A DNA stretch of 63,999 nt, filler included, from Reclinomonas americana ATCC 50394 (taxonomy: Eukaryota): NCBI GenBank assembly GCA_048213135.1. It is 7 parts of 5 records of this genome, joined end to end, with 100 filler letters (N's around TTAATTAATTAA, not from the genome) between each part and the next. Parts side by side here need not be neighbours in the genome. Positions count along the whole stretch, not along the records: positions 44,364 to 53,746 come from PS015857.1; 6 more parts are not named here. One strand, written 5' to 3'. Position 1 is the first letter of the stretch. Every line of letters starts with the position of its first letter. Position numbers and translations under genes: made by a program. This document shows positions 38,001-60,874 of this stretch, piece by piece. The notes under the pieces are model-generated. The model saw only the letters and a program-made list of their open reading frames with translations, ran no database searches and was not told the DNA's origin.

Positions 38001-41000
38001 AGGGCCAGGTGGAGCGCCTGACCAAGGAGTTGGAGGGTGCACGCCGCGAGGCCGAGCAGGCCCGCAAGCAGCTGGCCGAGGCCACTCGCAAGCACAATGC
38101 GGAGCGCGAGGCGCTGACGCAGGACCTCAACAATGTGCGCCGTCAGTTGAAGGCCACGGAGGAGGAGTTGGGCCAGCAGGTGTCGGCGTTGCAGGCGCGT
38201 GGCGACGCGCTGCAAAAGGAGCGCGACGAGTTGGCGGCCGCCCTGACGCAGTCGCAACGCCGCGCCGCCGATGCGGAGCGTGACCGCGATCAGCACCTGA
38301 AGAACCTCACCGACGTGACGGCCGACCGCAACCAGCTCAACACGGAACTCGAGCTGCTGCGCAGCCGCCTCGCTTCGACGGAGAAGGAGCGTGAGCGCCT
38401 GAAGGAGGAGAACGACGCGCAGGCTGGCAAGCTGCGCGATCTGGAGACGGAGGTGCGCCGCCTGGCGTCCGACCTCAACGTCAGCCAGTCGCACGCCGAG
38501 AGCCTCGCCGTGCAGAAGAATGCGCTGGAGCAGGACGTGGACCAGTTGCGCAAGCGTGTGACGGTGGCCGAGATGCAGCGTGCGGTGGCGCAGACGGAGC
38601 GACGCCGTCTGGAGGCCGAGGTGGCACGCCTGCAAAAGCAGGTGGAGCTGTGCAAGGTGGAGAACAAGGACTTGGCCGATGCCCGCGACAAGCTGGCGGT
38701 GGCGCTGCGCAACGCCGAGAACGAGGCGGCCCGTCTGAAGAACGAGCTCGACCAGTTGGCCCGCAGCCACGAGGACGTGTCGCGTCGCCTGCAGGAGACG
38801 CGCTCGGATTTGGACCACGTGACCAACGACCGCGACAAGATCAAGCAGGCGCTGTTCGAGGCTCGCCAGCTGTACGAGCAGGCGTCGACGGAGCGTGCGC
38901 AGGTGCGCGCCGACAAGGCCAAGCTGCAGGAGCGCTACGACGAGTTGGCGCACCAGAAGGCCAAGCAGGAGTCGGACTTTGCGGAGCGCGAGCGCAACCT
39001 CATTGCGCAGATTCGCGAGCTGGAGGCACGCGCGGTGGGCGCCGAGCTGGAGCGTGATGCGCTGTCGGCCCGTCTGCGCACCGAGTTGGAGCGCTACAAG
39101 GAGCTGGAGGCGGCTCACCGCAAGGCGTCTGCCGACCTGCGTGACGCGCAGGACGAGATTGCCGAGCTGAAGAAGCGCCTGCAGATGGCGTTGGAGATGA
39201 TTGACCAGCTGGAGGCTCGTTTGGGTCAGCTGGAGAACGATCTGGCCAAGCTGGAGGCCGAGCGTGCGGCGCTGCAGGCGGATCGCGACCGCATCAAGGC
39301 CGACCGCGACGAGTTGCTGCGCCGTGTGGCCGAGTTGCAGTCGGCACTGGAGCGTGAGCGTGGTGCGCTGACGGCGCAGGGCCGTGAGCAGCAGGCGCGC
39401 CGCAAGGCGTGGGCCGACGAGCGTGACGCGCTGACGCGTGATCGCGACCGCCTCGCCGACCTGTTGGAGCAGGAGGGTGCGCGCAACAAGGACCTGCAGG
39501 ACCGCCTGGCGGATTTGCAGCAAAAGCTGGACGCCAAGAAGGGCGAGAACGATCGCCTGCAGGAGCTGTTGGCCGGCCTGCGCAACGAGTTGGCCGCCGC
39601 CCGCAACAAGGCCGCCGCCGATGGCGACGCGTGGAACGCGGAGCGTGAGCGTCTGCTGGCGCAGATTCGCGACTTGGAGAAGAAGGTCGGCGACTTGGAG
39701 ACGGACCGCGCGCACTCGCGCGTGCAGTTGCAGGAGAAGACCACGGCGCACTCGGCGGTGTCGAACTTGCTCAACAGTCTCAAGACGCACAATGAGAACT
39801 CGACTCGCGAGCTGAAGGATCGCCTGGCGCAGTTGGAGGCGGAGAACGTGAGTGGGGGGAAGGGAGAAGGGGGATGAAAGGAGAAGGGATAGAAATGGAG
39901 AAGGGATAGAAATGGAGAAGGGATAGGGGAAGTAGAGAGAAGGGGAAGGGGAGGGAGAAGGTGAGAGTGGTCGGAGAAGTTGAGAATGGATAAGGTGACT
40001 TGTGAGGAGGGGAGTAAGAAAGGGAAGGGAGTGAATGAGTGGGAATGCAGAGAATGGAAGAGGTGGAGACGAGAGGAAGTGTGGGAAGAAAAAAGGAGAG
40101 AAGGAAAAGGAGCGAGTGAGTGGTGATGCTTAGAATGGAAGAGTGAGGTGGGGAAATAGAGAAGGAAGGGGAGAGAATGGAGAAGTGAGGTGGACAATGA
40201 GAACAAAAGGGAATGAATGAGTGAGGATGCAGAGCATGGGAATGAGGTGGAGACGAGAGGAAAATGTGGGAAGGAGAAGTGGAAATAAGAGGAGGAGAGA
40301 AAGGGAATGGAGGAAAGCAGGAAAAGGAGTGAGTGAGTGGGGTTGCAGAGAATGAAAGAGTGAGATTGAGTTTAAAGGAAATGTGGAAGGGAAGTTGAAA
40401 TAAGAGGAGAGAGAAAGGGAAGAGAGAAGGAAAGGAGTGAGTGAATGGTTAAGGGCGAAGGGAAAAAAAGAGTTGTTGAATTGAGTGGGAGTGAGTGGAG
40501 AAGGACTCGAACTTGCGCAAAGTGGGGAGGTGGAGTGAGGGTGAGAGATGGAAATTCTTCATTGATTCCTCGTTGCTCACTTCCCATCTCCTTCCCTCAT
40601 CAGGCGGCCCTGAAGGATCGCGTCGCCCAACTGGAGAGCGAGGTGGATCGCCTGCAGCAGCTGGCTCGCCAGCTGGAGCAGCAAAAGGTGGCGGCGGAGC
40701 AGCAGCGTGACTTGGCGGCGGCGGAGCGTGATCGCGTGCGTGGCGAGAACGCGGCGCTGCTGGAGAAGCTGCGTCTGCTGAATGCCGAGCTGGAGAAGGT
40801 CAAGGCCGAGAACGCCCACCTGCGAGTGGACGTGCGCGACCGCGACAACCGCATTGCGCAGCTGGAGGCTGAGCTGGCCGAGGCCCACAAGGTGCACGCG
40901 GCCCAGGTGGCCGATTTGACCAACCAGCGCAACCGCCTCAGCGCCGAGGTCACCAACCTGCAAAAGGAGCTCTCGTCGGTGAAGCAGGACCGCTCGGAGA

Positions 41001-42259
41001 TGACGGACCGCATCCAGTCGCTGTGCGACGAGGTCAAGCACGTCACCGACTTGCGCGATGTGGCGCTGAGCGACGCCGGCAAGGCGAAGCGTGAGCACGA
41101 CGCCGAGCTGGCTCGTGCCCGTGCCGCCCGTGACGAGGCCGTGGCCGAGCTGGCCAACGTGCGCCACAACCTGGAGCGCGAGTTGGCCGAGGCCAACGAG
41201 GAGATTGGCCGGCTGAAGGCGCTGCTGGATCGTGCCGAGAAGAACCGCCCGAACCCGAACCGCGACCTGGAGGCGCAGTTGCAGGAGGCCAACCGCCAAC
41301 TGCAGGCCGGCAAGGACGACAGCGATGCTCTGCGCCGCCGTGTGGTGGCACTGGAGCGCGAGAACGAGTCGACTCGTGCGGCGTTGGAGGAGGGCCGCGG
41401 ACACCACACTCGCCTGCGCGAGGAGCTGCAGAAGGCGTTGAACGAGACGGCGCAGTTGGCGGACGAGCGCAACGCGCTGCGCCAGCAGCTCGAGACGGCC
41501 GACACGCACGGTCGCAAGATCCAAGCCACCGAGCTCAGTGCCGTGGCCCGTGTGCTCGGCTTCTCACGTGGCCCGGCGGTGACGGAGACGTTTGTGCGCA
41601 GCACAACGACGACGACTCATCACGTGCCGGCGGCGGTGGTTGACGACGCCGAGCTGAATGCTGATTTGGACGGCGATTCGGACCGCGAGGACGAGGAGAA
41701 ACTGCGTCGTGTGGAGAAGACGATTGCGGAGGCTCCGGTGTCGACGACGACGACCACCACTACCACCACGGCGACCACCACCATTGCGGCGGTGGCCACG
41801 AACGGACACTCGCCCGACGATGCCAGCAGCCCGCGGTCGACGCACTCGGCGCACTCGGCGCACTCAGGGGTGAGTCGAGGGAGAGGGTAGAGGGAGAAGG
41901 AGAAGGGATGGAGAGGGAGAAGTGAGAGGGAGAAGTTAGAAATGAGAGAATATGTGAGAATGTTGGAGAGAGGAAATGTGTGGGCCGAGTGATAGTATCG
42001 AGTTAAGCAATTCACTGCTGCTCCCCTTTCCCTCACTTTTCTCTGTGCCCCCATTTCCCAGTCTGGTGGCATCCTCAGCTCTCGCCTGCCGGGAACACCG
42101 ACGATTGAGAAGCCTGCACCGGCGGCGGCCACTGCTGCGGCTGCGGCAGCGGGTGACGAAGGCGCTGGTGACGACGAGGGTGAGGAGGGTGGCGCGGGCC
42201 CCGCTGCAGGCAGCACGCCCAAGAAGAAGCGCAACAACCGCCGTCGTGGACGCAACTAA
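22852..42259 (+). CDS. Giant coiled-coil protein (~3,375 aa; rootletin/C-Nap1-like in character). 16 exons: 22852-22926, 23123-23275, 25203-25283, 25358-25447, 25534-25718, 27705-27840, 27912-28055, 28651-28845, 28911-29504, 29579-30379, 32531-32908, 32980-33753, 33845-34693, 35639-39847, 40604-41869, 42062-42259
   Basis: All junctions are GT-AG and phase-compatible, giving one continuous ORF with thousands of residues of heptad E/R/L/A/Q/K sequence. Extra exons could be hidden in the gaps at 26307-27196 and ~30994-31093. Confidence 0.8.
31955..32062. repeat. Compound (TTC)n-(TC)n microsatellite
   Basis: Direct reading. Confidence 0.9.
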
Positions 42260-42945: not shown

Positions 42946-43442
42946 CGCCTGTTTGCAGTCTGTGCCATGCAGACTATGCTGCCCACACAGAATACCGATG
43001 TAGCTTTCGACCTGTTCTCATCCTGAGCAACGTAAAAACGCAACAAAGAATGCCATGTTGTGCCAACTAAGTGTTTCATTCATCACTCATCTCTCGAGTA
43101 ACAGCAGTCGGCAGACTCTCTGATGGAGTTGTCGCGGCAGTCACCGGTTCGTTCGAGTAACCGCACTTGGCACTCTCACCGGTCGTGCAAAGCCTATCTC
43201 GAATCACTGCACACATCGAGTCGTGTCAGCAACACTTGCACGGCAGAGCGCCCGCATACAGAGAGAGGCAGAACGAGAGAGTGAACAACAATCAGTAAAG
43301 AGTTTGTCGTCATGATCCGCTGCCCCCATAATGTCGCTGGCGAGCGACGGGTTAACAGAGACTCGGACGCAAATTACAGCATCACTTTGTTGACACGAAA
43401 ACCACGCACAGAAAGTCCCTCTCTCCCCGGAAAAAAACTCAC

Positions 43443-44170: not shown

Positions 44171-44363
44171 CAGAGAAGTACAAGAGAACCGACGATAGAA
44201 CTGCAGCATGACAAGTCGTACAATAGAAAGTGTGCAGAGAGAAGGACAAAGGAGAACGAAACANNNNNNNNNNNNNNNNNNNNNNNNNNNNNNNNNNNNN
44301 NNNNNNNTTAATTAATTAANNNNNNNNNNNNNNNNNNNNNNNNNNNNNNNNNNNNNNNNNNNN

Positions 44364-45924: not shown

Positions 45925-48900
45925 ATGCACTTGGCCTCGTGCGCACGACTGAACATACCTCCTCCTCCTCCGCCACCTCCTCCACCGCCGCCGCCGCCTC
46001 CACTGCATCACCACGAGCATCACTATCATGCGGGAATGATGGTCGAGTATGCGCCTCCTCCTCCGCCACCGCCTCCGCCTCCGCCACCACAGCAGACGCT
46101 GCCTCCGCCAGAGTCGACATCGACTTCGTTGTTTGCGTACACGGGTGAGCCGGCGCATGTGCCGCCGCCGAGTGCGCCGTTGTATTCAAACGGGCATCCG
46201 CCTCCGCCTCCGCCGCCTCCGCCACCGCCACCTCCGTCGCAGGGAATGGTGATGCAGTTGCAGATGTGCGGTGGAGGGAATGGAGTGCCGTCATCGCCGT
46301 GTGCGGAGGATTTGTATGGGCATGGTGGGGTGGGCGACGGGGGGATGGAGGAGGTCGGGGGAAGTGGTGGCAAGTTGCGTTGATGGAGGGGGAGGAAGAG
46401 GGAAGGGAGGAAGGGAAAGGAGAGAAGGGAAGGGCGATGAGGAAGGAGAGAAGAACAATGAGTGACGTTGAGAAGCTGCTGTGGAGAGGGAGGTGGACGG
46501 GAGTGAGAATGAAAGAGAGATCGGCGAGAGACAGAGAGCGATGAGTGCCGTTGAGAGCAGTGATGGAAAGCTGCTGTGGAGAGGGAGGTGAGAGATCGGC
46601 GAGAGAGAGAAAGAGCAATGAGTGACGTTGAGAGCAGTGATGGGCAGCTGCTGTGGAGACGGAGGTAGACGGAAATGAGAACGAGAGAGATTGGTGAGAG
46701 AGAAAGAACAATGAGTGACGTGGAGAGCAGTGACGGTAGGCTGCTGTGGAGAGAGAATGAGTTTGCCAGCGTGCAGAACAGCAGTCGTGCGAGAGTGTAT
46801 GCTGCAGCCTTTCGTTGTTTCTGGGGTGGTGCTATCAGGAAAGAGAATGATCCATCCAGCACATTTCATCTGTCACCTGTTTGTCGGCAAGAGCCAGTTG
46901 CCTGTTCGCCGTGTTGCAATGCGCCTTTTTTCGTCAGGAAGCCATCTTTGTTATCACTGCCTGCAGTCATCATCTTGAGCTTTCCCTCTTGTACTCCCCC
47001 TGTCACTCCTCCTCCCCTTGTCCTTCCTCCCTCCATTGCCCGTGCTCTCTCCCTTGTCCTTTCTCCTCCCCTTGTCCTTTCTCCTCCCTTGTCCATCCTG
47101 CTACCCTTGTCCTTCCTCTCCCACTTGTCCTTCCTCCACCCCCTTGCCCGTCCTCTCCCCCTTGCCCTTCCTCCACCCACCCCTTGTCCCCCCTGCTCAT
47201 CACTGCTGCAGACGCCGCCGCCGCCGCACCTCCCTCGCCTCCGCGTGGCCCGGCGCACCCGAAGTCATCACCGACTCCTCGGTGCGCCTGTTCGCCATTG
47301 ATGGCAACGGGCGCGAGAAGGAGGCCATTCTGTGCGTCAATGGCGCCCTCTCGGTCAAGTATCGCAAGATGGAGCTGCAGACGGGCTCGCAGCAGCTGGT
47401 GGATCTCGTCATTCGCGACAAGGAAACTGGCGATCCGCTGACGGTGCTGGCGGCCCGCTTCCTGCGGCATCCGTTCTTTCAGAGTGTTGCGTGGTGTGCG
47501 TGTGATTCGAGATGAACCTTTTCCCACTCTAATCCTCGCGTGCAGTCGCACAGCTACACGGCGTATGTGTTTCAAAAGTCGCACAACAGTCGACTGCTGC
47601 CCATCACTCGTGTGTTGTGGGCGAGACCGGCTCTGGGCGGAAACACGCAGGTGGGTGTTGCAGTGAGAATGATTTTCATCTCACCCAGCTCTCTCTGATT
47701 CCATTGTCGCACAGGCCGGTTTGGTGGAGCTCCTCGTGCAGAGACCCCACTCACCGCACGGCGGCCCAGCGCAGCCTACCATTCGTCTGGCGGTGCACTT
47801 TGAGCAGAAACCAAATCGTGTGCGCGAGGGAGAGGAGCGACTGAGATTAAGTGGCGGCCAGTGGACGCGACTCACCGACGAACCGTCGGTACTGGCGCGT
47901 GAGCTGGTGGCGGAGGAGGTGCGTGGAATCTGTCTGTTCTCTTTTTTATGTCGAGTATCCGCTGATTGAGGGAAAAACAGGATCTGAAACCAGACGGCGT
48001 GCTTGGCGACCGACCCTCGGAAGACATGAAAGTGCTGACGCGTGACACTCCTTCCGCTTCCGCGGCTCATGCTGTGTCGGCGGATGGCACTCAGATTATG
48101 TGGGCATATCTGGCGTCATTGCAGGTGCCTGAAGGGTGAGAATGAGGGCGAGGACGAGTGCTTCTCTTGCAATGCATTTTGCTCAATGCTCATGGCAGAG
48201 GTGGCATTCCTCCACCGTCGGCAATACCACCTCCGGAGATGACGACGCCACAATCGCAGCCGCCAGTTCCACCACCGCCGCCACCGGTGACTCCGCAATC
48301 GCCTGCAGCCATGGTTGACGTGAAGCATTTGATGAGCGGAATCGCTGCGACTGGTGACGATATGTCGGTCGGCGGTGACATTGGTGGTGGTGGTGGTGGT
48401 GGTGCGATGAGCTGTTTGCAGGCGTCACTGTCGGCGTCGATGATGAATGGGAGTGTGACGGGCAAGCGGTATGTTGACACTGTGGGTGGCAGACTGGTCA
48501 TCGCCAAGGATAACTGACGTCGATGCGGTGTAGGATGCAACCGGAGGATGGCTTTATGGCAGCAATGGATGGCATGCCGGTGTTGCATCGTGAACAGTGC
48601 GTTGTCGAAGATGAGGGGAAGGTTATCTGGAGAGCAACAAAGAGAAGAAGAAGTGTGAGCTGTGTCTCTCACGCTTTTGCTTCTTTGATTTTTCCACGCT
48701 CTCGCTCGGTTTCACTAATGTTCACGGCCACCTGCACTCACTTTTCTTCTGCGTTGTCTTTCATTCGTGTCCATGTCTCACACTTTCATTTTCGTCCAGT
48801 CCCACATTCTGCATCATGATAGTACCTCGTTGCTTCACTTCCTTTCCACTTTCTCCATTGCTCCTTGCAGTCTTTCTCATATACGTTCTCAGTTTCCCCT

Positions 48901-49783
48901 CCATTACTTGTCACCTCTTCGAATGTCATGCTCGTCCTCTCTCACGCTTTCACTTCCTTGATTCTCCAGTCTCTCGTATTCGTCTCTCAGTTTCACCTCT
49001 GTTCACTTGCCACCTTCCCTCGCTCTTCTTCCGCATTGTCTTTCATGTCGAATGTCATTGTCTTTTTCTCACGCTTTCACTCCTTTGAAACTCCAGTGTC
49101 TCCTACGTGTCTCTCAGTTGCACCTCCGTTCAGTTGTCACCTTCCCTCGCTCTACTTCCGCCTTGTTTTGCGTTCTAGTCCAATCCCACATGCCGCATTG
49201 TGATAATTCACGATAGTCGCCCTGGATTCATTCTCTCGCAGTTATGCAGTCTCTCTGACTAGTTTCGCCGAGTTTGTACTCACCACAGTCCCACGCTGAG
49301 TTGCACCTTTCCATGAGTCTCGCTACTATCACTCTTTTTCCCTCCTGCGTACGATCGCCTCTCACTTCATTCTCTCTCCGCCGCTCAGCCGCAATGCACC
49401 GACCATGGGTCTCCCGGTAACGGTGATTCTCGTACCCACCACACAAGACAGTTGCGCCCTCCGTCAGCTGCTTCTCCGTCTCCCAATCGCCCTCACCTCT
49501 TGTCGCAGTGGGCTCGGGTCGCGACGACCGCCTAGTCATGTCGTTGCCGTCACCGCGCGACTTTGTGGCGCAGCTCAACGAGCAGCTGGCGCGAGTGCAG
49601 AGATTACGCGCGCCGTCAGCACTGCCGTGGTTTGTGCTGGCCGATGGCGGCGGTCGCTGTTTCATGATGGATGAGAACGCGGCCGAACTGTTTATTGCTC
49701 GGATGGATAGAGAGAGTCAGCGCGACGACACCGGCTACTGCGTGATGTACATTCACGTCAACAGCTACGCGGTGCCGTCGTGA
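45925..49783 (+). CDS. Protein of unknown function with poly-proline N-terminus (exons include 45925-46373, 47212-47485, 47546-47650, 47715-47918, 47981-48135, 48199-48468, ~48533-48652, 49509-49783)
   Basis: Phase-compatible GT-AG junctions. Three poly-Pro tracts and a KRRRRR basic patch precede globular-looking exons. Stop at 49781-49783. The 3' exon joins are less certain. Confidence 0.6.
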
Positions 49784-49928: not shown

Positions 49929-52900
49929 TCACACCACCGGAATGGCCACTTGCGTGTTGATGCCGCATTCGCCCTGGAAAGGGAGGAGAAGGAGGTGGGA
50001 AACAAAGGAAGGGAACGGAAGACAGAGGAGAAGAGAAGACGAACGTGGAGGAGGAAGAAGAATTGTAGAGACAAGGGAATAGAGAAGAGAGGAAGACGGA
50101 GGAGGAAGAAGAAGATAGGCAGGAGAAGGAAGTGTGGGGAGAGAGAAAAATTGAGCTAAGGAGGAGTCGCAGGCACTCGTTTAAGAAAAGCGAAGATTAT
50201 GAAGGAGGAAGAAGAAGAAGAAAGGAAAGAGAAGGAAGTGTGGGGAGAGGAGGGAAGGAGAGGAAAGAGAAGAGAACGAGTCGAAAGCACTCGCGCTGTG
50301 TGCGTCGTGACCTGGATGCGACAAAAGGGAGAAGACGAGAGAGAGCACAGGAAGAGTACAGGATAGAGAAGGAGACGAAGGCACTCGCACAGTGTGTGTT
50401 GTGAAATGAAGGTGAGAAACAAAGGAGAGAACCGAAGATGGCGAAGAGCGAGGAAGAAGAAGAAAGAAAGAAATAGTAGTGGGGAAGAGTTTGCGCAACA
50501 GTTCCACGGCGGATCTTGAAGTAGCCATCCTGTGCAGCATAGCTTGGTGAGAGAGAATTGCAGAGATACTCCAATTGAGGATGACGCAACAATGCCCCAC
50601 TTCTTGCCCCAGCTGTGCCGCGGAAAAAAGACAGAGACGAGAGTGAGAACGAAAGGGAACTGAGGTGACTGGAGGACACGGCATCGAACCTGTTCTTCAC
50701 GAGCCAGTACGGCTACGAACAGAAAACTAGTGAGTCAGACAATCGATGAAGCAGTCAGAGAGTGCTTCAATGCAAACCTTTTCCTCTCCCAGCGCGCCCT
50801 TGTCAATTCCGTAGCCTGTGTAGTGTCAAGTCAGTGATCTCATTCTTCTTCTGTGCTTTGAGACGGCGACGCACCGACGAGCAGCACGGCGTGGTCCAGC
50901 GACGTCGGATCGCAGAACGGCGGGTGCCACACCTGTCAAGAAGAGTCAGAAGAGGCGAAGCGAATTGTGTGCAGAGGATGCACGCAACTCCCGAGTGGTA
51001 GAACTGCAGCATCTCGGCGTTGAGGGCCACACTCAGGGGGCCGCGAGCCACCAGCGTGCTGGCGATCGTGGTCTCGTCCTTGTCAATGGCTCTGCAGAGA
51101 GGGTGAGTCCGTGGACAAGTCAATCAAGCGGCATGATTGACGCACTCCCAGCTGCGAATGTGCGCCGTGAAGTGGCTCTGGGAGGTGGCCAGACAGTGCC
51201 ACTGGGTGCTGCAGGCGGAGGTTGGCGACAGGCACAGAAGAAGTGATCAACGGAAGAGATAGACGCACGCATTGCAGAAGGACGGGCCGGGGCCTATGAG
51301 CAAACGGTGAGCAAGAACAACAGGGAGAGGAAGGTCGACGTATGAGTACGTACCGCACATGGTCTTGTTGTAGTTGACGGGCATGCATGGGAAGCAGCCT
51401 GCAAAGGCATGAAATGGGGGTGGGAAGGGGAAAGGGGAAGGAAACTTGAAGACAAACCATCGCAGCACTGCAAACGGATGCAGTCAGCAAAGAACACCGT
51501 GCAATGACAACACACAAGCGACGCAACGTAAGGATAATCGGCCTCGCTCATCAGACCGCCGACCTTGATAATGTACTCGAACACCAGGTACGGCCAGCTG
51601 CGACATGACGACAAAGAGACATGAGGAGACATTCACAGTTGGGAAGACAAATCGAAGAGCATGGTCGTGCAGCGAGAGAGAGCGAGAGAAGAATGACCAA
51701 CAACTAGAGAAAGCGACGCACATAAATGCACACGGGTGACAAGGACAACATCATGAGCCGAGAGCAGGGTTGAGATGCACAAAGCGGTGTTCGGCCCAAC
51801 AACTAGTCGAAACGAAAAGAGCCAAACACAAATGCACACACAGAGAGAATTGAAAATAAGGGCGATCGGAGCACCATCAGCCAAGAGCAGGTGTGAGATG
51901 CAGGGAGCGGTGTTCGGCCCAACAACCAGTAGAAATGGAACGAGCCAGACACAAAATGTGCACACAGGGAGAATAGAAACAGAAGGGTGACTGGGACAGC
52001 ACCATGAACACGAGATCAGCACTTGACCCAAACAATCAGCGGATCATAAAGAGACATCGAAACGGTAAAGACAAAGTTGAACAACTCAAATTGCAACGAG
52101 AGCAGGACAGAAGCGTACACGACGTGACGCACAGACAACGCACCCGCCAAACACGCCACAGTCATTGCTGTCGCACTCGACCACTTGCTGAACGCTCTGC
52201 GCATCCAACATAGCAAGTCAGTCACGGCACAACTGACCTCGCACGCCCCACGAATCGCCCCACCATCTGAGTCAGCTTGTTACCAGCCAAAAAGTACTGG
52301 CCCTCACTGCGCAGGCAATGAGCAAGCGGAGACAAAAAGAAAAGATATTACCAACAAAACGCACATGGCCTGGGCGGCGGAAAACGCGTAGCCTGCGAGA
52401 AGAGAGTGAACACGAGATGGTCCGGACGCTAAGCGGCAAGGATTTCGTCACGCAACAGGTGCCGCAAGCCGACTGGTCGCGCACGTCGCTCACGGCTCCG
52501 TGGTCACGCCAGTCGAATGACTCGGGCGGGGCCATGAATGTGCCTGCAACCGGTGTCAGCCACGTGACACAGCAAAGGATGGATTGAAGAGCGACGCAAC
52601 GGAGCACGGGTGCGTAGCGCTCGCGAGGGAGCACGCTCGGCTCGCGCGACGGCATGAGCACCTTGGTGCGGAACTCGTCCGGGCGCATGTCGGCGTACGG
52701 GGTGTTGATGGAGAAGACCACGTCGTCGCCACCGGACTGCTCCGGGAAGGGGAAGGAGTGAGATAAAGGGGAAGGCGCTCACCAAGGATGGAGACAGAGA
52801 GGGACATAAGCGTGAAGTGATTGGAGAGGGAGGAAAGAATGCCAGCTGGCGAATCGGAAGACAGGGGGAAGAATGCGAGAGAGGGGACGTATGACCAGGA

Positions 52901-54143
52901 TGGGTGAATGTCTGCAAAGTGAGTGAAACAGAAAGGAAGGCAACTGGACAGAGGAAACAAGGTAAGGGGAAAACGATAAGAGCGGGTGAGAAGGCGTATC
53001 TGCCTGGTCTGAGGAAAAGAAACGGAAACCAGATGCCAAGGCAGTGCGCAAGTGAATGAGAACACGATAGGGTGATGCAAATGACTGAGTGAGACGCCGG
53101 GGGTGTGCGCAAGTGAATGAGAACACGATAGGGCGATGAGAATGAATGAGTGAGACGCCGGGGGTGTGCGCAAGTGAGTGGGAATACAATAGGTCTGGGT
53201 GAGAATGAATGAGTGAGACGTCGGGTGTACGCAAGTGAGTGGGAACACGAAAGGACTGGGTGAGAATGAGAGAGTGTCAAGTAATGCCTGCGAGTAAAGA
53301 AAAAAGGAAAGGGGGAAACGTGAGGAGAATGCGCGATGAGGATGATGCCTGCAGTGGGGGAGAAGGGAAACAGACAATCATGCATGCCTCGAGCGCAAGA
53401 ACTCTGGAGTGAAGAATCGGATCAAGGAGAGAGAGACAGGCAGTCGTCGCGTCTCATTCTCTCCTCACCTTGCGCTCATTGAGCTGTCGCACCAGGGCGA
53501 CATTGTTCTTGAAGGTCTGGAAGCGCACTTGCTCCTCCGACAGCGACTTGTACCGCTTTCCGTGTTCCGCCTTCCATTCGCCAAACGCGCGCTCGTCCTC
53601 GACGAGATCGTCGTCGAGAGAAGAGGTGGAGGGCTGTGTGGTGAGTGGGAAGGGGGGTGAGGGGGGACGGTAAGGGGAAGGGATGAGTGCGAGTGAGTGA
53701 GTGAAGGGAGGGAAAGAGTGACAGAGTGAGTGAGTGAGTGAGTGAGNNNNNNNNNNNNNNNNNNNNNNNNNNNNNNNNNNNNNNNNNNNNTTAATTAATT
53801 AANNNNNNNNNNNNNNNNNNNNNNNNNNNNNNNNNNNNNNNNNNNNGAGGGAGTGAGGGAGGGAGTGAGTGAGTGAGTGAGTGAGTGAGTGAGTGAGAGA
53901 GTGAGTGAGTGAGTGAGTGAGTGAGTGAGTGAGTGAGTGAGAATGCCTCCGAAGAATGCTGACGAGTTCGCTCTCTCTCTCTCACACACACAATGCACGA
54001 GTGAGAGACAACCTCCTCTCACACACACACTTCTCTCTCTCTTCTCTTTCACTCACCCCTCGCTTGAGCTGCGACGAGTGCGCAGTCGCAGTCAGCACAC
54101 AAAGTGCGACGAGAAGAGTGCACAAGAGGAGCACTGCGCGCAT
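49929..54143 (-). CDS. Papain-family (C1A) cysteine protease, cathepsin L/F-like, with signal peptide and I29 prodomain; 19 exons
   Basis: The spliced product has a signal peptide (MRAVLLLCTLLVALCVL), an ERFNIN-type prodomain (EEQVRFQTFKNNVALVRQLN), PESFDWRDHGAV, catalytic Cys (DQSACGTCYAFS), CGVFGGWP, catalytic His (LDHAVLLVGYG) and Asn (YWLVKNSWGKKWGIDGYFKI). It ends GECGINTQVAIPVV*. Confidence 0.93.
53040..53275. repeat. Intronic tandem repeat, ~60 bp x4
   Basis: GTGCGCAAGTGA.TG.GAA.AC.ATAGG...GAGTGAGACG recurs. Confidence 0.75.
53864..53941. repeat. (GTGA)n tetranucleotide microsatellite (also at 925-954 and 53725-53746)
   Basis: Direct reading. Confidence 0.9.
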
Positions 54144-54207: not shown

Positions 54208-57200
54208 TTATTTGATGCATTCTCCTCTCTCTTGAATGCCTCGTTTTCTCTCGTCTGTGCGGGGATCATCGTCGAGCAGATGTGGTCGTGGCGGCGCCGG
54301 TGAGTCGCGTGCTTGATGGTCGTCCACTGCACGACGTTCTTGTCTGAGAAACAATCGCGGATTGCACTCGTCTCTCACCTCTCTTTCCCTCTTGTTTTCT
54401 TCATCCTTCGTTCTCTCCTTCCACTCCTTCACTCACACTCTCAAACAACTCTTCCTCCTCTTCTTCTTCTTCTTCACAACCACACACCCTCTTCATTTCT
54501 CCTTGACAGAGACGCACAATCTCTCTCTCGCTCTGCCTCCACCTCTTACTCCTTCTCTCTCCCCTCTCTTTCTCTCTCTCTCTCTCCCTCTCTCAGTCTT
54601 GCTTGTACTCTCTTTGAAGCACACACCCAACTTATCTCTTTCGCTCTTTCTCTCCACCCTCCATAATCTCCTTTCTGCACTTGTTTTTCCTCAACACCTT
54701 CGTTCTCTCCTTACACTCCCACACTTTCACTCTCTCTCTCTCTCTCTCCCTCTCTCTCAGTCTTGCTTGTGCTCGCTTTCACACCCTCAACTTATCTCTT
54801 TCACCCCGTGCTTCCTACTCCCTTCTCTCTTCTTCTGGACTCCTCATTCCTTCACTGTCTCTCTCTTCCTGTCTCACTCGATTCTCTCTTTCCTTCACTC
54901 CTGCACTCCTGCTTCACTCTCCCCAAGCTTTCACTCTTGCTACCGTTCGCTGGTTTCCTTTACTTTCTCTATTCTTCCCTCCCTGCCATCGCTACCACCT
55001 TCACTCGCTCTCTCTCCTCTTTCTTCACTCTCCTTCGCTCTCACCGCCTCTCTCCTCACTTCACTCATCTCTGCGCTCTTTCTTCACTCTCCTTCGCTTA
55101 CACCCCTCTCTCTTCTTCTTCACTCCTTCCTTTCCTGCCACCTTCTCTGTCTTTCTCTGCCCCCTCGCTCATTCCCTTTCTCCTCCCTCTTCTCTCTTGC
55201 CTCTCCTTCGCTCTCAATCTCTTCACTCCGTTCCTTCGCTCCTTCCCCCATTCTTCTCTCTCGCTCACCTCCCGTCGACGGCCATGGCCGACGAACTCGT
55301 TCTCCGCGAGAGACTCGATGTTCTGTGCGCGCGCGAGATGAGACCACAGAAACGAATCGCAGCATGCAGTGTTCATGCCACGCAACTGCGATGGAGGCAT
55401 GACTGGCACGGGTGGTGGAATCCCGGGATTCAAGTACGACTGGCTTGCCGGACGTGCGCTGAGTCGCTTGGCTTCCTCCCTGCGACGATATCATCAGCGA
55501 CGAACACAAACACGAAGGTAGAGAACTCTTTTCCCTCAATCCCCTTTCCCTCATTCCCCTTCTCCTCTCAATCCCACCAACCTGGCCAGGAGTTCCGCTC
55601 GCTTCTTCGGCAGCTCCTGCAAACAGTACGCCTGGTGCGCCGGATCCAGAGCCATGGCCTCTCCAAAGAAATAAATGAGCTCCCGCAAATGATCGTCCGT
55701 GATCTTCAGCGGCGATCTCCGCGACGCCGAGGCCGGTGACAACACAGCGCCCGTCGGTTCTGCGACGCTGGCGGAACCATCGGCGGCGGGCAGTCGGGAG
55801 GACACGGGCGCGGTTGACGACGACGACGATGCGCTTCGTCGCACCGACGACGACATGGTCGAGGCACTGATGCTGCGTGGCGGGGTCGACGAGGCCGCCC
55901 CCGTTGCCGAGACGGCACCGGAAGCAGCAGCGGCAGCCATGGTCGCCGACGTAATGGTGGACGGTTTGGCAGGGGGCGCCGGTCCCAGGCCGGTAACCGT
56001 GCCCGGTTTGGCGGCGGCTCGCAGACTGCCGCTGCCGGTTCGGGGTAATGAGTCGCCGGCGGGGGGGAAGACCGACGATGAAGACGAGGATGACGATGAT
56101 GATCCGCCCGGAGCAGTTGGTGGTGTGCTGACTGGCGTGGGCGTCGAGATGGGAGCCTCTTTCACTGTGTAAGAGATGTGAGTGGAAAGGAGAGGAAGAA
56201 GAAGGGAAAGGATGACAAAGTAATGGCGAGAGCGGTATGTGATAGAAAGAATCGTGGCGATGAGAGAATGCACAGCGACACAAACGAAGTCAACTCACCA
56301 ACGCGAGGAAACAATGGCCCCTGCAGTCCGCGATTCCAGTTTTGCAGCAACATATTGAGCGATCGCTCGGCTTCACCGAGGCGTTCAAACATCGGGAACT
56401 GCCGATTGATATCGGCACTGCGTGAAACGCAAGAATTTTAGCCAGGCTTCCACAAATAAAGACGAGCGACAATAAAACGCACCTTGTACACGCGAGCTTG
56501 GTGACCTCCGGCATTGACGCCATCACGCCACCCCATCCAGGCACACCGATATCCAAATATCCGAGTGGCGTGGGTATACTGGGAATCTATTATCGCACTT
56601 GGTTGGTGAAAGCATATCTCAATGGAAACAGCACTGGCTCTTCCCTCTGACCTGCTTGCGTGTCTTTAACCGCGTATCCAACTCTTGGGTGATGGTCTGG
56701 TAGAACAGCAGCGAGGGCTGGTATCTGTTCTCCATGATGGCATGCACGACCTCCTCCCACGGTCCAACCTGCCAGCCAGTCGCTCACGCGTCAACACACG
56801 CACGTGTGCAATCTTCCTCCACATCATTCCACGCGCACTCACCGATCTCACGTTCGTGTCGTCAAACGCAATCCACTCATTCGTCAAGCCGCGGAACGTG
56901 TACACCACGTAATGGTTCAACGAGTAGCACACGAGCGACGTGAGAACGTATGTTGTCGGCGAACGCTGTCGCTCGATAGTCACCACACGCATTCGCGGGG
57001 ATCGATCGCCGGAGCCCTCCAAGGTGCGGTCGGTCACTGCCGACACAAAAGTGTAAAGAAAAGAGGAAGGAGGGAGGGAGAGAGGACAGGAGGGACAGCC
57101 ATGAACGCACCAGCATGGCATTTGAGCTTGGGGACCATGTGAGACCAGTGTGCAGGCTTCTTGGTGTCGGCGTCGTCGTGGCCGCGGAATACCTGCTCGA

Positions 57201-60031
57201 GATCGATGGCGGTGTCGATGGAGGAGGCCACGGCTGCAAAGAGGGAGAGAGAGAGAGGAGGGTGGTGAGAGGGATAGTAGGAGGTAGGGGGAGGGAAAGG
57301 AGGAAGGGGGAACAGCAGGGGGAGAGCAACGAGGGGGAATACGATGGGGAAGTGCAAGGGGGGAGAGCAACGAGGGGGAATACGATGGGGAAGTGCAAGG
57401 GGGGAGTATGTTGGACGAGAGAACTGGGGAGCGAAGGGGGGAGAGGATGGGGGAGGAGCACGAGGGAGAGCATGGGGAAAGAGCATGAGCGGAGAGCATG
57501 GGGGGAGAGCATGGGCGGAGAGCATGGGGGGAAAGCAAAGGGGGGAAAAGCATGGAGAAAGAGCATGCGGGAACAGCATGCGGGAACAGCATGGGGGAAG
57601 AGCACGGGGGAATACGATGGGGAAGTGCAAGGGGGAAGAGCAAGGGGGAAGAGCAAGGGGGAAGAGCAAGGGGGAAGACATGGGGGGGAAGAGCACGGGG
57701 GAGAGCNNNNNNNNNNNNNNNNNNNNNNNNNNNNNNNNNNNNNNNNNNNNNNNNNNNNNNNNNNNNNNNNNNNNNNNNNNNNNNNNNNNNNNNNNNNNNN
57801 NNNNNNNNNNNNNNNNNNNNNNNNNNNNNNNNNNNNNNNNNNNNNNNNNNNNNNNNNNNNNNNNNNNNNNNNNNNNNNNNNNNNNNNNNNNNNNNNNNNN
57901 NNNNNNNNNNNNNNNNNNNNNNNNNNNNNNNNNNNNNNNNNNNNNNNNNNNNNNNNNNNNNNNNNNNNNNNNNNNNNNNNNNNNNNNNNNNNNNNNNNNN
58001 NNNNNNNNNNNNNNNNNNNNNNNNNNNNNNNNNNNNNNNNNNNNNNNNNNNNNNNNNNNNNNNNNNNNNNNNNNNNNNNNNNNNNNNNNNNNNNNNNNNN
58101 NNNNNNNNNNNNNNNNNNNNNNNNNNNNNNNNNNNNNNNNNNNNNNNNNNNNNNNNNNNNNNNNNNNNNNNNNNNNNNNNNNNNNNNNNNNNGGGGGGAG
58201 AGCAAAGGAGGAAGAAAGGGGCAAAGTGAAGGTGAAGAAGAAGGGAAATGAGAAGGGAGGGAAGAGCAGAGGGATACAGGGAGGATTCGGCCGACAGAGA
58301 GTAACGAATACGGGAGACACAAGCGGAGAAACAAGCGGCACCAGATTCGAAACATAGAACATCCATGCCACATACCTCGAATCACTTCTTGCGCCGAGTG
58401 ATTGGTGTTCCACGCCAAGCCAATGCAGAACACAGTGGGATTGTTGCGAAGCGAGGCCGTGCGCGTGCACTTGAGTGAACATGTCGGCTACGCACGCACG
58501 TGTCAGTGGAAGAAAGATGTAGCGCGCACGATATGCATTCAATTCGCACCTCGTTTGGACACGACATCATGGAGACACCCAGCGACTGATGCACCACGTC
58601 ATCGAATCCGCGAATCACGTCGCCAAAGTTCATGTATTTCCTGTGAACGAGAATTCTCATCAGCTGCACGTGACACGGTATGGTGACACAGCGACAGCTA
58701 CGCAACACCACATCGGCCACGTTGACTGTCTGCACGTACTGCACGGTCTGTTCGAGAGACGACTCGACGCCACACAGACACTTGGATTGCCACTCGATTT
58801 GCTGGCCAAACACCTCGTCGATCAGCGTCGGGGATTTTGAGTAGGTGAGGTCGGACATTAGCAGGCTGATTACGGTTTGCTGGCGGGAGGGGGAAGGGAT
58901 AAGTGAGTGAACAGGAAGGGGGAAGGGGAGAAGGGGGAGAAGGAGAGAGAAGAGGGCGAGAAAGAATGCATGGCGAATTACAACAGAGGAAAGCAAAGCT
59001 GGTGAGTGTACAGGAAGAGGGAGCAAGGGAGAATTGTGACGCATGGATTGTGATTGACAGCGACAAGAGTGACAGCGACAAGAGCGACAGCGACACGCGA
59101 GCAACAGCGATGAGAGCGACACGAGAGTCAACGACACGGAGCGACAGCGACACAGAGCGACAGCCACAAAGCGACAGCCACAAAGCGACAGCCACAAAGC
59201 GACAGCGACACCGAGAGCGACAGCAATACACAACACCAGCAGCAACAGCGACAGCGACAAGAGAGACAGCGACAAGAGCAACAGCGACACGAGCGACTGC
59301 AACACGAGCGACAGCGACACGAGCGACTGCAACACGGAGCGACACGCGACGAGAGCGAGACAGCGACACGAGCGACTGCAACGGAACTGCAACACGGGGC
59401 GACAGCGACACGAGCGACTGCAACGGGACTGTAACACGGGGCGACAGCGACGAGAGCGACAGTCGACGAGAGCGAGACAGCGATACGAGCGACAGCAACA
59501 CGAGCAACAGCGATACGAGCGACAGCAGCAGGAGCGACAGCACAGCGACACAGAGCGACAGCGACACGAGAGGGAGAATCAATGGGGAGAGAACGAGACA
59601 GGGAAACAAGTGACAACGCTGCACGGGAGAGAGAAACGGATGGCACAAGCAAAAGAGGAAACGAGGAGCTTGAGGAAACAGAGAGTTGCAAATGCGAGCT
59701 TGTGAAAGATACGATGAGCGAGAGAGAAACTATTCATGCTCCGCACCATGGCCTCCCACGCATCCTCCATGTCACCCAAGTTGAACGCCGATGCTCTTGA
59801 CAAGGCAATGCGAACGGGCGCCGGGTCCACAATGCGCGCTCCTTCCGCGGCATACTCCCTGAACACCGTCTGTGTGCGCGACAAAGAGTGAGGACGACGA
59901 GCGCGAAGGAGGCAGCAGCGAATGCACATCGCAACTCGGAAGCCGGCCAGCACGGGCGCATAGACAACATCCTCGGGTCGCAGATCGCACTTGATGATGC
60001 GCTCGCGGAGTTGCGGGATGTGGTAGAATGT
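54208..60031 (-). CDS. USP53/USP54-like ubiquitin-specific peptidase (C19) domain protein; 5'-partial
   Basis: Spliced motifs TFYHIPQLR, FNLGDMEDAWEAM, PTVFCIGLAW, His-box LVCYSLNHYVVY...WIAFDDTNVRSVGPWEEV and YQPSLLFYQ, followed by a Ser/Ala/Pro-rich tail. The Cys-box exon lies beyond the gap at 60143. The frame of the last exon is less certain. Confidence 0.75.
57310..57706. repeat. Intronic G-rich minisatellite (GGGGGAAGAGCA-type units)
   Basis: Degenerate tandem copies running into an assembly gap. Confidence 0.75.
59055..59570. repeat. Intronic minisatellite built from GCGACA / GCGACAGCGACACGA units
   Basis: Degenerate 6/15-bp periodicity; produces spurious ATRAT/SDSDT ORFs. Confidence 0.85.
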
Positions 60032-60874
60032 CTGCGCAGAAGAAGGGAAGAAGAAGGTGAGAGTGTGGAGAGGGAGGGGAGAGAGAGAGAGAGAGGAGGA
60101 GGAGGAGAGAGAGAGAGAGAGAGAGAGAAGAAGAGGAGGGAGNNNNNNNNNNNNNNNNNNNNNNNNNNNNNNNNNNNNNNNNNNNNTTAATTAATTAANN
60201 NNNNNNNNNNNNNNNNNNNNNNNNNNNNNNNNNNNNNNNNNNGTGTACGTAGACGCTTAACTCGTTGAACCTGGGTGCTTGCCCTGCAGCTGCAGATAAG
60301 TGCAGTTCGCATTATTGGAATGTGGTGAATGAAGTGTACATGTTTTTCTTTTTTCTATTAGTATCCTATTTTGCGCCAACGCGTTTGATTGGCTTTGTCT
60401 CCTGAAAGGGAAGATGACTGTTGAAGAAGATTTTATCTATGTGTTGTATATTGTTGGTGTGCCAATGGTCATCGTCGGCAAGGGATTTGTGGACATTTGT
60501 CGCATTATTGGAATGAAGAAGTGTTTTGTGTGAAGTGTTTACGTGCATTTCATTGATCAGCTGCAAGGACGCAAGCGGACCAAGCGCGACACATTACTTT
60601 GAGGGGTGAGAGCAACACTCTCGTGAGGTCATTCCTTTCCGGCTCTCCTCCTCCTCCCCCTTCTCCACACCCACCAGTGCCAGTGCAGTATCTCTGTTCG
60701 TACCCGCGCGCCCTTTTTCTCTCCATTGTACACGTATCTTTACTCTCTCTTTCTCCCTGAGGCCCGCCCCCCCCCCCCCCTTCTCTCCCTCAGATACATG
60801 CACACACTCACGCTCCCTCCTCACTTGCTGCTTATGCCCTCCCCACTGCAGCGTGCTGTAATTGGTGGGCGAAC

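Follow-up and report, generated by a model that had tools for sequence, protein, structure and literature searches.

Recognition of 5' splice sites (donors) in registers other than the canonical one, whether shifted as a whole or with one base bulged out, is established in human cells. Shifted-register donors are known from mammals (Roca and Krainer 2009, as cited in the accessible part of Tan et al. 2016, PMC4856993), and in that part of the source all validated non-canonical registers taken together account for 1.5% of 201,541 human sites. For donors with a bulge at +2/+3 (Roca et al. 2012), Table 3 of the same paper (Tan et al. 2016, PMC4856993), in its accessible text, gives 68 predicted sites, of which 54 are left after curation. 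In tunicates, lineage-wide departures from GT-AG have been linked to changed U1/U6 and U2AF, according to the accessible part of the source (PMC13326754). The present text concerns a 64-kb stretch of DNA from Reclinomonas americana ATCC 50394 (assembly GCA_048213135.1), referred to in its entirety as the window, and a class of donors reading GTTGCG that recurs in it, most densely in a gene for a papain-family protease.

Apart from the GU, a donor is determined most strongly by the Gs at +5 and -1, and how U1, U6 and U5 jointly fix the cleavage site is still debated. In 2008, Irimia and Roy reportedly described a strict GTGCG(T/C) donor, together with a CTGAC branch grammar, in Ostreococcus. 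Among the matches listed in a literature search, no title points to a lineage with routine shifted donors, and a genome paper may hold such a description.

The window is eukaryotic nuclear DNA with a G+C content of about 54% and 16 runs of N, in which genes with short introns are separated by long CT- and CA-microsatellite spacers. Introns were predicted with a home-made spliced-gene parser that combines codon log-odds, an acceptor matrix and an intron-length prior with a donor model self-trained from scratch. The self-trained parse contains 105 introns, and its commonest donors include GTGCGT (23), GTTGCG (13) and GTGAGT (8). Removal of 11 introns that touch exons of less than 6 nucleotides (nt) leaves a cleaned set of 94, comprising 69 of a main class with G at +5, 13 with GTTGCG or GTTACG, and 12 others. 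The GTTGCG class thus makes up roughly 12-14% of parsed introns (13/105 parsed; 13/94 cleaned). An earlier, sequence-only reading of the window had put it at about a fifth of the donors; the recurrence of the class holds, at this lower frequency.

A second version of the parser, in which every GT is treated alike, was applied to enrichment only and not to gene models. This donor-blind version is noisy: reversing the window as a control hardly lowers its intron count, from 155 to 148. Both strands together contain 6,994 GT hexamers, of which 69 are GTTGCG; the donor-blind parse uses 11 of these 69, which makes GTTGCG the most enriched hexamer of all (7.2-fold, p = 5e-7); GTGCGT comes next, with 11 of 85 used (p = 4e-6). 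On the reversed window, GTTGCG is used in none of 49 occurrences, and no hexamer falls below p = 0.008. When GTTGCG is forbidden as a donor, the donor-blind parse loses 20.6 bits, a loss exceeded only by that of GTGCGT (43.4 bits). Forbidding GTGTGT, GTTTGT or GTGCGC costs 10.4-14.6 bits, GTGAGT 3.9 bits, and the remaining 14 hexamers that were tested 0-4.4 bits; among the controls, six lose the parse only 0-0.4 bits and another six 1-4.4 bits. On these counts, GTTGCG(T/C/A), and rarely GTTACG, forms a real and recurrent class of predicted GT-AG (major-spliceosome) donors, used far above chance. Its spread is uneven, with 6 of 17 introns in the protease and 7 of 77 elsewhere (p = 0.012).

The gene richest in these donors is a predicted cathepsin F-like papain-family (C1A) protease with an I29 propeptide, modelled on the minus strand at 49932..53615 as 18 exons and 17 introns. 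It is extremely intron-dense, since the 17 introns interrupt only about 1 kb of coding sequence (341 amino acids in the self-trained parse). The sequence-only reading had counted 18 introns, six of them with GTTGCG. The six are found at exactly the positions that it listed, and 17 introns are modelled between the I29 propeptide exon and the last one; an eighteenth is possible, since the gene has its 5' end at an assembly gap or beyond it. The 732-nt intron after the propeptide exon contains a unit of about 60 bases in three tandem copies (about 53050-53200, minus strand).

Several lines of homology support the protease model. Pfam profiles recover Inhibitor_I29 (E = 3.3e-11) and three pieces of Peptidase_C1 from the minus strand of the 50.8-53.7 kb region, and human cathepsin F is the best solved-structure match for one of the exons. 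A search of 1.84 billion representative proteins, in which the query was the read-through open reading frame of exons 2-3 only, returned 80 homologues at E <= 0.001. The full spliced model aligns with homologues from end to end; the best of them (P0006) is 44.6% identical (E = 4e-102), a Naegleria gruberi protein (P0050) is 44.4% identical, and more distant relatives include proteins of Cyanophora paradoxa and Mucochytrium quahogii. The nearest relatives with a species name thus belong to widely separate groups. Against a hidden Markov model built from 14 homologues alone, the spliced product scores 448.6 bits. A multiple alignment that includes eight homologues is free of gaps at all six GTTGCG junctions, and the regions of the catalytic Gln, Cys, His and Asn are conserved. 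The I29 propeptide, the Peptidase_C1 domain and the full-length similarity place the product in the papain family C1A. Word-based homologue searches with the read-through open reading frame and with the I29 exon gave no match, nor did a metagenome scan with the I29 exon. In its domains (I29 and Peptidase_C1) the protein is like other cathepsin F-like C1A proteases; the gene differs from theirs in its intron density.

The need for each GTTGCG donor in this gene was measured as the number of bits lost, under the hidden Markov model of the 14 homologues, when the best alternative GT/AG pair within 30 nt is used instead. All six donors are on the minus strand. The first, at 52595..52600, opens a 57-nt intron within the linker that joins the propeptide to the mature enzyme, and its best alternative costs 8.5 bits. 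The second (52451..52456) opens a 64-nt intron that interrupts the catalytic-cysteine motif, and replacing it costs 23.8 bits. Next comes a 60-nt intron with its donor at 51522..51527, where the loss is only 1.5 bits. For the donor at 50983..50988 (56-nt intron), the best alternative costs 108.7 bits and brings in a stop, while the donors at 50585..50590 (61-nt intron) and 50494..50499 (a 526-nt intron preceding the last exon) have alternatives that cost 10.8 and 14.7 bits, respectively.

Because these alternatives cost between 8.5 and 108.7 bits, five of the six predicted donors are firmly required by homology, and the one at 51527 is a near tie. Its rival is an in-frame GTGTGT 12 nt downstream, which would give a 48-nt intron. 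The GTTGCG donor is favoured there, though not decisively, because the Cys that follows YPY is conserved in the homologues and because the rival leaves an intron of 48 nt. At the background share of GTTGCG among GT hexamers (69/6994), finding at least six among 17 donors has a probability of 1e-8.

In most respects the introns of this class are ordinary. Their median length is 64 nt, as against 65 nt in the main class, all 13 have GT...AG ends, 12 acceptors read CAG and one TAG, and CTRAY motifs occur in 6 of the 13. The reading frame and homology show the predicted cleavage to lie before the first G, since any other cut breaks the frame. What sets the class apart is the sequence around the cut. 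G at -1 is found in 0 of 13 members, compared with 55 of 69 main-class donors (Fisher p = 4.5e-8), and the same holds within the homology-checked protease (0/6 vs 8/11, p = 0.009). The base at -1 resembles instead the -2 position of the main class; the chance of drawing no G in 13 is 1e-9 at the main-class -1 rate and 0.16 at the main-class -2 rate.

The intronic side is equally constrained. The extra base is exclusively T, as GT[ACG]GCG is used in 0 of 194 occurrences, and with the extra T the only cores in use are GCG (13/69) and ACG (1/6). C stands at +5 in all 13 members. The main class itself prefers C at +4 (37/69), the place that matches it, and 13 of 13 would have a probability of 3e-4 if the class were drawn from the main one. 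Used sites are enriched for T at +7 (8/13 vs 13/56, p = 0.016), which parallels the T at +6 of the main class. Taken from +1 to +7, the class sequence GUUGCGU equals the main-class sequence from -1 to +6, GGUGCGU, with a single G replaced by U. Two marks of a shifted-register site are therefore present: the canonical register is weak, with no G at +5 or -1, and the consensus is regained when the site is renumbered by one base.

These features suggest a site that is recognised, as a whole, in a register offset by one nucleotide, an interpretation that attracts about as much belief as doubt. In such a register, G+1 would fill the slot of the usual exon-end G, U+3 would occupy the U+2 slot, and G+6 and U+7 would occupy those of G+5 and U+6, while the catalytic centre would still cut at the only available GU. 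The register of recognition and the site of cleavage would then lie one base apart, as they do in the rare mammalian shifted-register donors, but here routinely. The missing G at -1 is expected under such a shift, since G+1 already fills that slot. The sequence-only reading had proposed that the normal donor motif is moved by one nucleotide; this fits, and may be sharpened to a shift of the entire site, but the mammalian mechanism alone is not sufficient to account for it.

Several observations weigh against the shift. A single 64-kb window and a home-made parser underlie the statistics on the class. The window has few GGTTGCG to begin with (9/69), and the absence of G at -1 is therefore to be read as a missing preference and not as avoidance or depletion. 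GTTGAG and GTTGTG are used in 0 of 38 and 0 of 40 occurrences, though GTGAG and GTGTG are common among normal donors; such a restriction to GCG and ACG cores counts against the shift because textbook U1 would prefer an A-rich core. Pairing energies point the same way. They were calculated by the nearest-neighbour method with the textbook U1 5' end as unmodified RNA alone, and 1,000 GT sites served as the random set. Main-class donors form duplexes with a median of -6.0 kcal/mol, in the canonical register in 51 of 69 cases. The GTTGCG class, however, has a median of -1.6 kcal/mol and inconsistent registers, where random GT sites have -2.4 kcal/mol, and a further mark of a shifted-register site, a stable shifted duplex with textbook U1, is absent in every register. 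Finally, an acidic micro-exon gene elsewhere in the window has one exon end that is followed by GTGCGT in two of its repeats and by GTTACG in the third. The third repeat tells against a shift because it looks like a one-base insertion, the origin that a bulge model predicts.

As a reader of the class, then, textbook U1 is doubtful, and since it forms no stable duplex, something specific to the lineage is likely to be involved. One form that this might take is a dedicated reader that would bind GTTGCG tightly enough to tolerate or require the offset: a U1 5' end matched to the GCGU core, a second U1 or U6 paralogue, or a protein factor. The preference for C agrees with such a reader, as it is seen both at +4 in the main class (37/69) and at the matching place in all 13 shifted donors; textbook U1, with U-type bases opposite, fails to explain this preference and gives no usable duplex. 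Together with the exclusive GCG core, the preference at +4 suggests a partner that favours G-C pairing there. If the U1 end is hypothetically made to pair with the main-class consensus, the class reaches a median of -6.5 kcal/mol, and in 11 of 13 sites U+3 and G+6 come to occupy the shifted slots, which is suggestive only. However, the same hypothetical end gives random GT sites -5.2 kcal/mol, a modest difference. Against a lineage-specific reader there is, moreover, the U1 5' end itself, one of the most conserved of RNA sequences, and the explanation is on balance unlikely. In a more explicit version, tentative to a like degree, a changed U1 5' end or a co-expressed U1 or U6 variant could form a short GC-rich helix with the GCGU core; two registers one base apart would be possible, and the cut would always fall at the GU.

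A bulge is the other way of reading the extra T. U1, and later U6, would pair as with GTGCGT, with one U at +2/+3 looped out and G+1 in its normal slot. The intron side of the class is exactly GT + T + GCGT, and bulge registers at +2/+3 have been validated in human cells, as the accessible part of the source has it (Tan et al. 2016, PMC4856993). An inserted T would also fit the micro-exon repeat, in which identical exon bases are followed by GTTACG and not, as in its sisters, by GTGCGT. A bulged site, however, should keep the exon-end G or need it more, where 0 of 13 is found as against 55 of 69; the extra base is only ever T, and textbook U1 yields no stable bulged duplex either. A bulge thus seems quite unlikely. 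The shift is favoured over it because the G at -1 is absent and the extra base is always T, and the sequence patterns of the class suggest that the site is probably shifted and not bulged, and that textbook U1 alone is unlikely to read it.

Very improbable, by comparison, is an artefact, in which wrong gene models, a pseudogene or assembly errors would imitate introns. The window is a gapped draft (16 runs of N), the donor-blind parser calls about as many introns on the reversed control as on the real window, and seven of the sites listed by the sequence-only reading are without support. Yet splicing yields an intact protease that can be aligned along its entire length and retains the catalytic Gln, Cys, His and Asn regions; with p = 1e-8, it is not credible that GTTGCG arose at exon ends through six separate one-base errors; and the reversed control uses the hexamer in 0 of 49 occurrences. 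Least probable of all, to the point of being discounted, is a recently spread mobile intron family (introners) carrying its own GTTGCG end: the uneven spread of the class (6/17 in the protease vs 7/77 elsewhere, p = 0.012) would suit it, but among the 94 introns compared no pair of GTTGCG introns is similar at E 0.01, their matches being microsatellite and to other classes, and the class introns diverge in sequence right after the donor.

Three further candidates were rejected. The donor consensus of U12-type (minor spliceosome) introns is of a long, conserved ATCCTT type, and the donors here are GTTGCG followed by variable sequence. Nested twin introns do not fit introns of only 56-66 nt. An intron boundary that has merely slid by one base fails where the next exon has no initial G, as at 51527.

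Outside the protease, the class is represented by donors of varying certainty. All 20 positions listed by the sequence-only reading carry the motif that it gave (19 GTTGCG and one GTTACG). Its 14 sites beyond the protease fare differently from one another: the site at 33754 stands strongly; those at 22041, 22927, 58706 and 59935 are recovered by the self-trained parse; 55386 is recovered weakly; 47486 is ambiguous; and seven (12356, 12516, 23276, 25284, 25448, 25719 and 46374) are not recovered by the parser, which neither refutes nor supports them.

The firmest of these predicted donors, at 33754..33759 on the plus strand, opens a 91-nt intron in a giant coiled-coil gene and is required by the frame. 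It is the sole GT that can join reading frames of 774 nt and 849 nt in frame, and both candidate junctions with a positive acceptor score share it. The surrounding region (27700-41860, plus strand) appears to hold one or two giant genes, whose coding sequence exceeds 9 kb, with few introns and one exon of 4.2 kb; its Pfam matches are to coiled coils only.

In the micro-exon gene (19603-22400, plus strand), the self-trained parse places a GTTACG donor at 22041..22046 with a 78-nt intron, and other in-frame GT sites are present. This donor and the GTGCGT donors at 20894 and 21061 belong to repeat units of one gene with identical exon-end bases. The gene as predicted encodes an acidic product and is made up of a repeating unit of exon and intron, the exons being 9-84 nt long and the introns 51-70 nt. 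Its sister introns are alike; those at 20823 and 20988, for example, are 88% identical over 52 nt.

Five other plus- and minus-strand candidates from the same list, and one outside it, are less constrained. The GTTGCG at 22927..22932 (plus strand) is a probable donor in the self-trained parse, with an uncertain acceptor that gives an intron of either 83 or 196 nt. At 47486..47491 (plus strand), the motif is the parser's choice, but the candidate is ambiguous, with GTGCGT 10 nt downstream and the downstream frames all open. The self-trained parse adds a candidate outside the original list at 49451..49456 (plus strand, 58-nt intron), for which alternatives exist. On the minus strand, the candidate at 58701..58706 is found by both the donor-blind and the self-trained parses and that at 59930..59935 by the self-trained parse; each opens a 66-nt intron, and alternatives exist for both. 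The candidate at 55381..55386 (minus strand, 64-nt intron) appears only when the gene penalty is relaxed and is accordingly weak.

Other features of the window were recorded in passing. Six identical 100-base joins, each made of 44 N, TTAATTAATTAA (a six-frame stop) and a further 44 N, lie at 12780-12879, 30994-31093, 44264-44363, 53747-53846, 60143-60242 and 61406-61505, and are mostly flanked by microsatellites. At 6900-7360 (minus strand), three predicted introns, which start at donors 6945, 7141 and 7357, are 90-93% identical to one another over 41-48 bases; the predicted exons between them are tiny, and the array may be a tandem repeat misread by the parser. A 632-codon open frame at 61709-63604 (plus strand) has BNR/Asp-box repeats of the Sortilin-Vps10 type (E = 1.6e-26) and a C-terminal match to the immunity domain Tli3 of the type VI secretion system; the parser wrongly inserts introns there. 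An exon at 56777-57034 (minus strand) may encode the C-terminal, His-box part of a ubiquitin-specific protease; a word-based search with it returned no relatives. TGCATGC, a motif typical of coccidia, is not enriched in the window (12 occurrences vs 10.9 expected). An Rfam search of the 64-kb window found no small nuclear RNA genes; no transfer RNA gene turned up in it either. The sole curated RNA family match is a C/D-box small nucleolar RNA, SNORD16, at 43289-43389 (minus strand; 51.6 bits, E = 2.4e-7, above the gathering score), and the remainder is weak, microRNA-like noise.

If the version with a changed U1 or a U1 or U6 variant is true, the organism would provide a natural system in which the recognition register and the position of cleavage are uncoupled at more than one in ten introns. 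A lineage that routinely uses donors without G at +5 or -1, and yet cuts precisely, would make the question of how the cleavage site is fixed testable by natural variation, and such variation in sequence would then stand in for a handful of human exceptions. There would also be a practical consequence. Any gene finder trained on one position-weight matrix would get the splicing of about one in seven introns wrong here, and in the protease this amounts to six frame errors in one gene.

How far the class resembles known systems depends on which of its features is compared. Similar to the mammalian shifted-register sites, as far as the accessible part of the source describes them, the donors here have a GU with an extra pyrimidine and a consensus that lies one base deeper, without G at +5 or -1, and they would be cut at the GU despite a pairing that is presumably offset. 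They differ in frequency, since the class makes up 12-14% of parsed introns where the human sites are a curiosity, and in the core, which is GCG here and not the A-rich core that suits textbook U1. With the bulge +2/+3 sites, again within the accessible account of them, the class shares the logic of the intron side, a GU followed by U and a normal core. Those sites, in contrast, keep their exon-side pairing, and the exon-end G is found here in 0 of 13.

Like Ostreococcus, the window has a main donor of the GTGCGT type (23/105), and CTGAC-like branch motifs occur; unlike Ostreococcus, which is said to be intron-poor and compact, it is rich in introns and microsatellites and has long spacers. 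The tunicates, going by what is accessible of the source, offer the parallel of a whole lineage that routinely uses donors which the standard spliceosome would read poorly. There, however, GT itself has been lost, whereas the introns here retain GT-AG, and what would appear to move is the register of the surrounding consensus alone.

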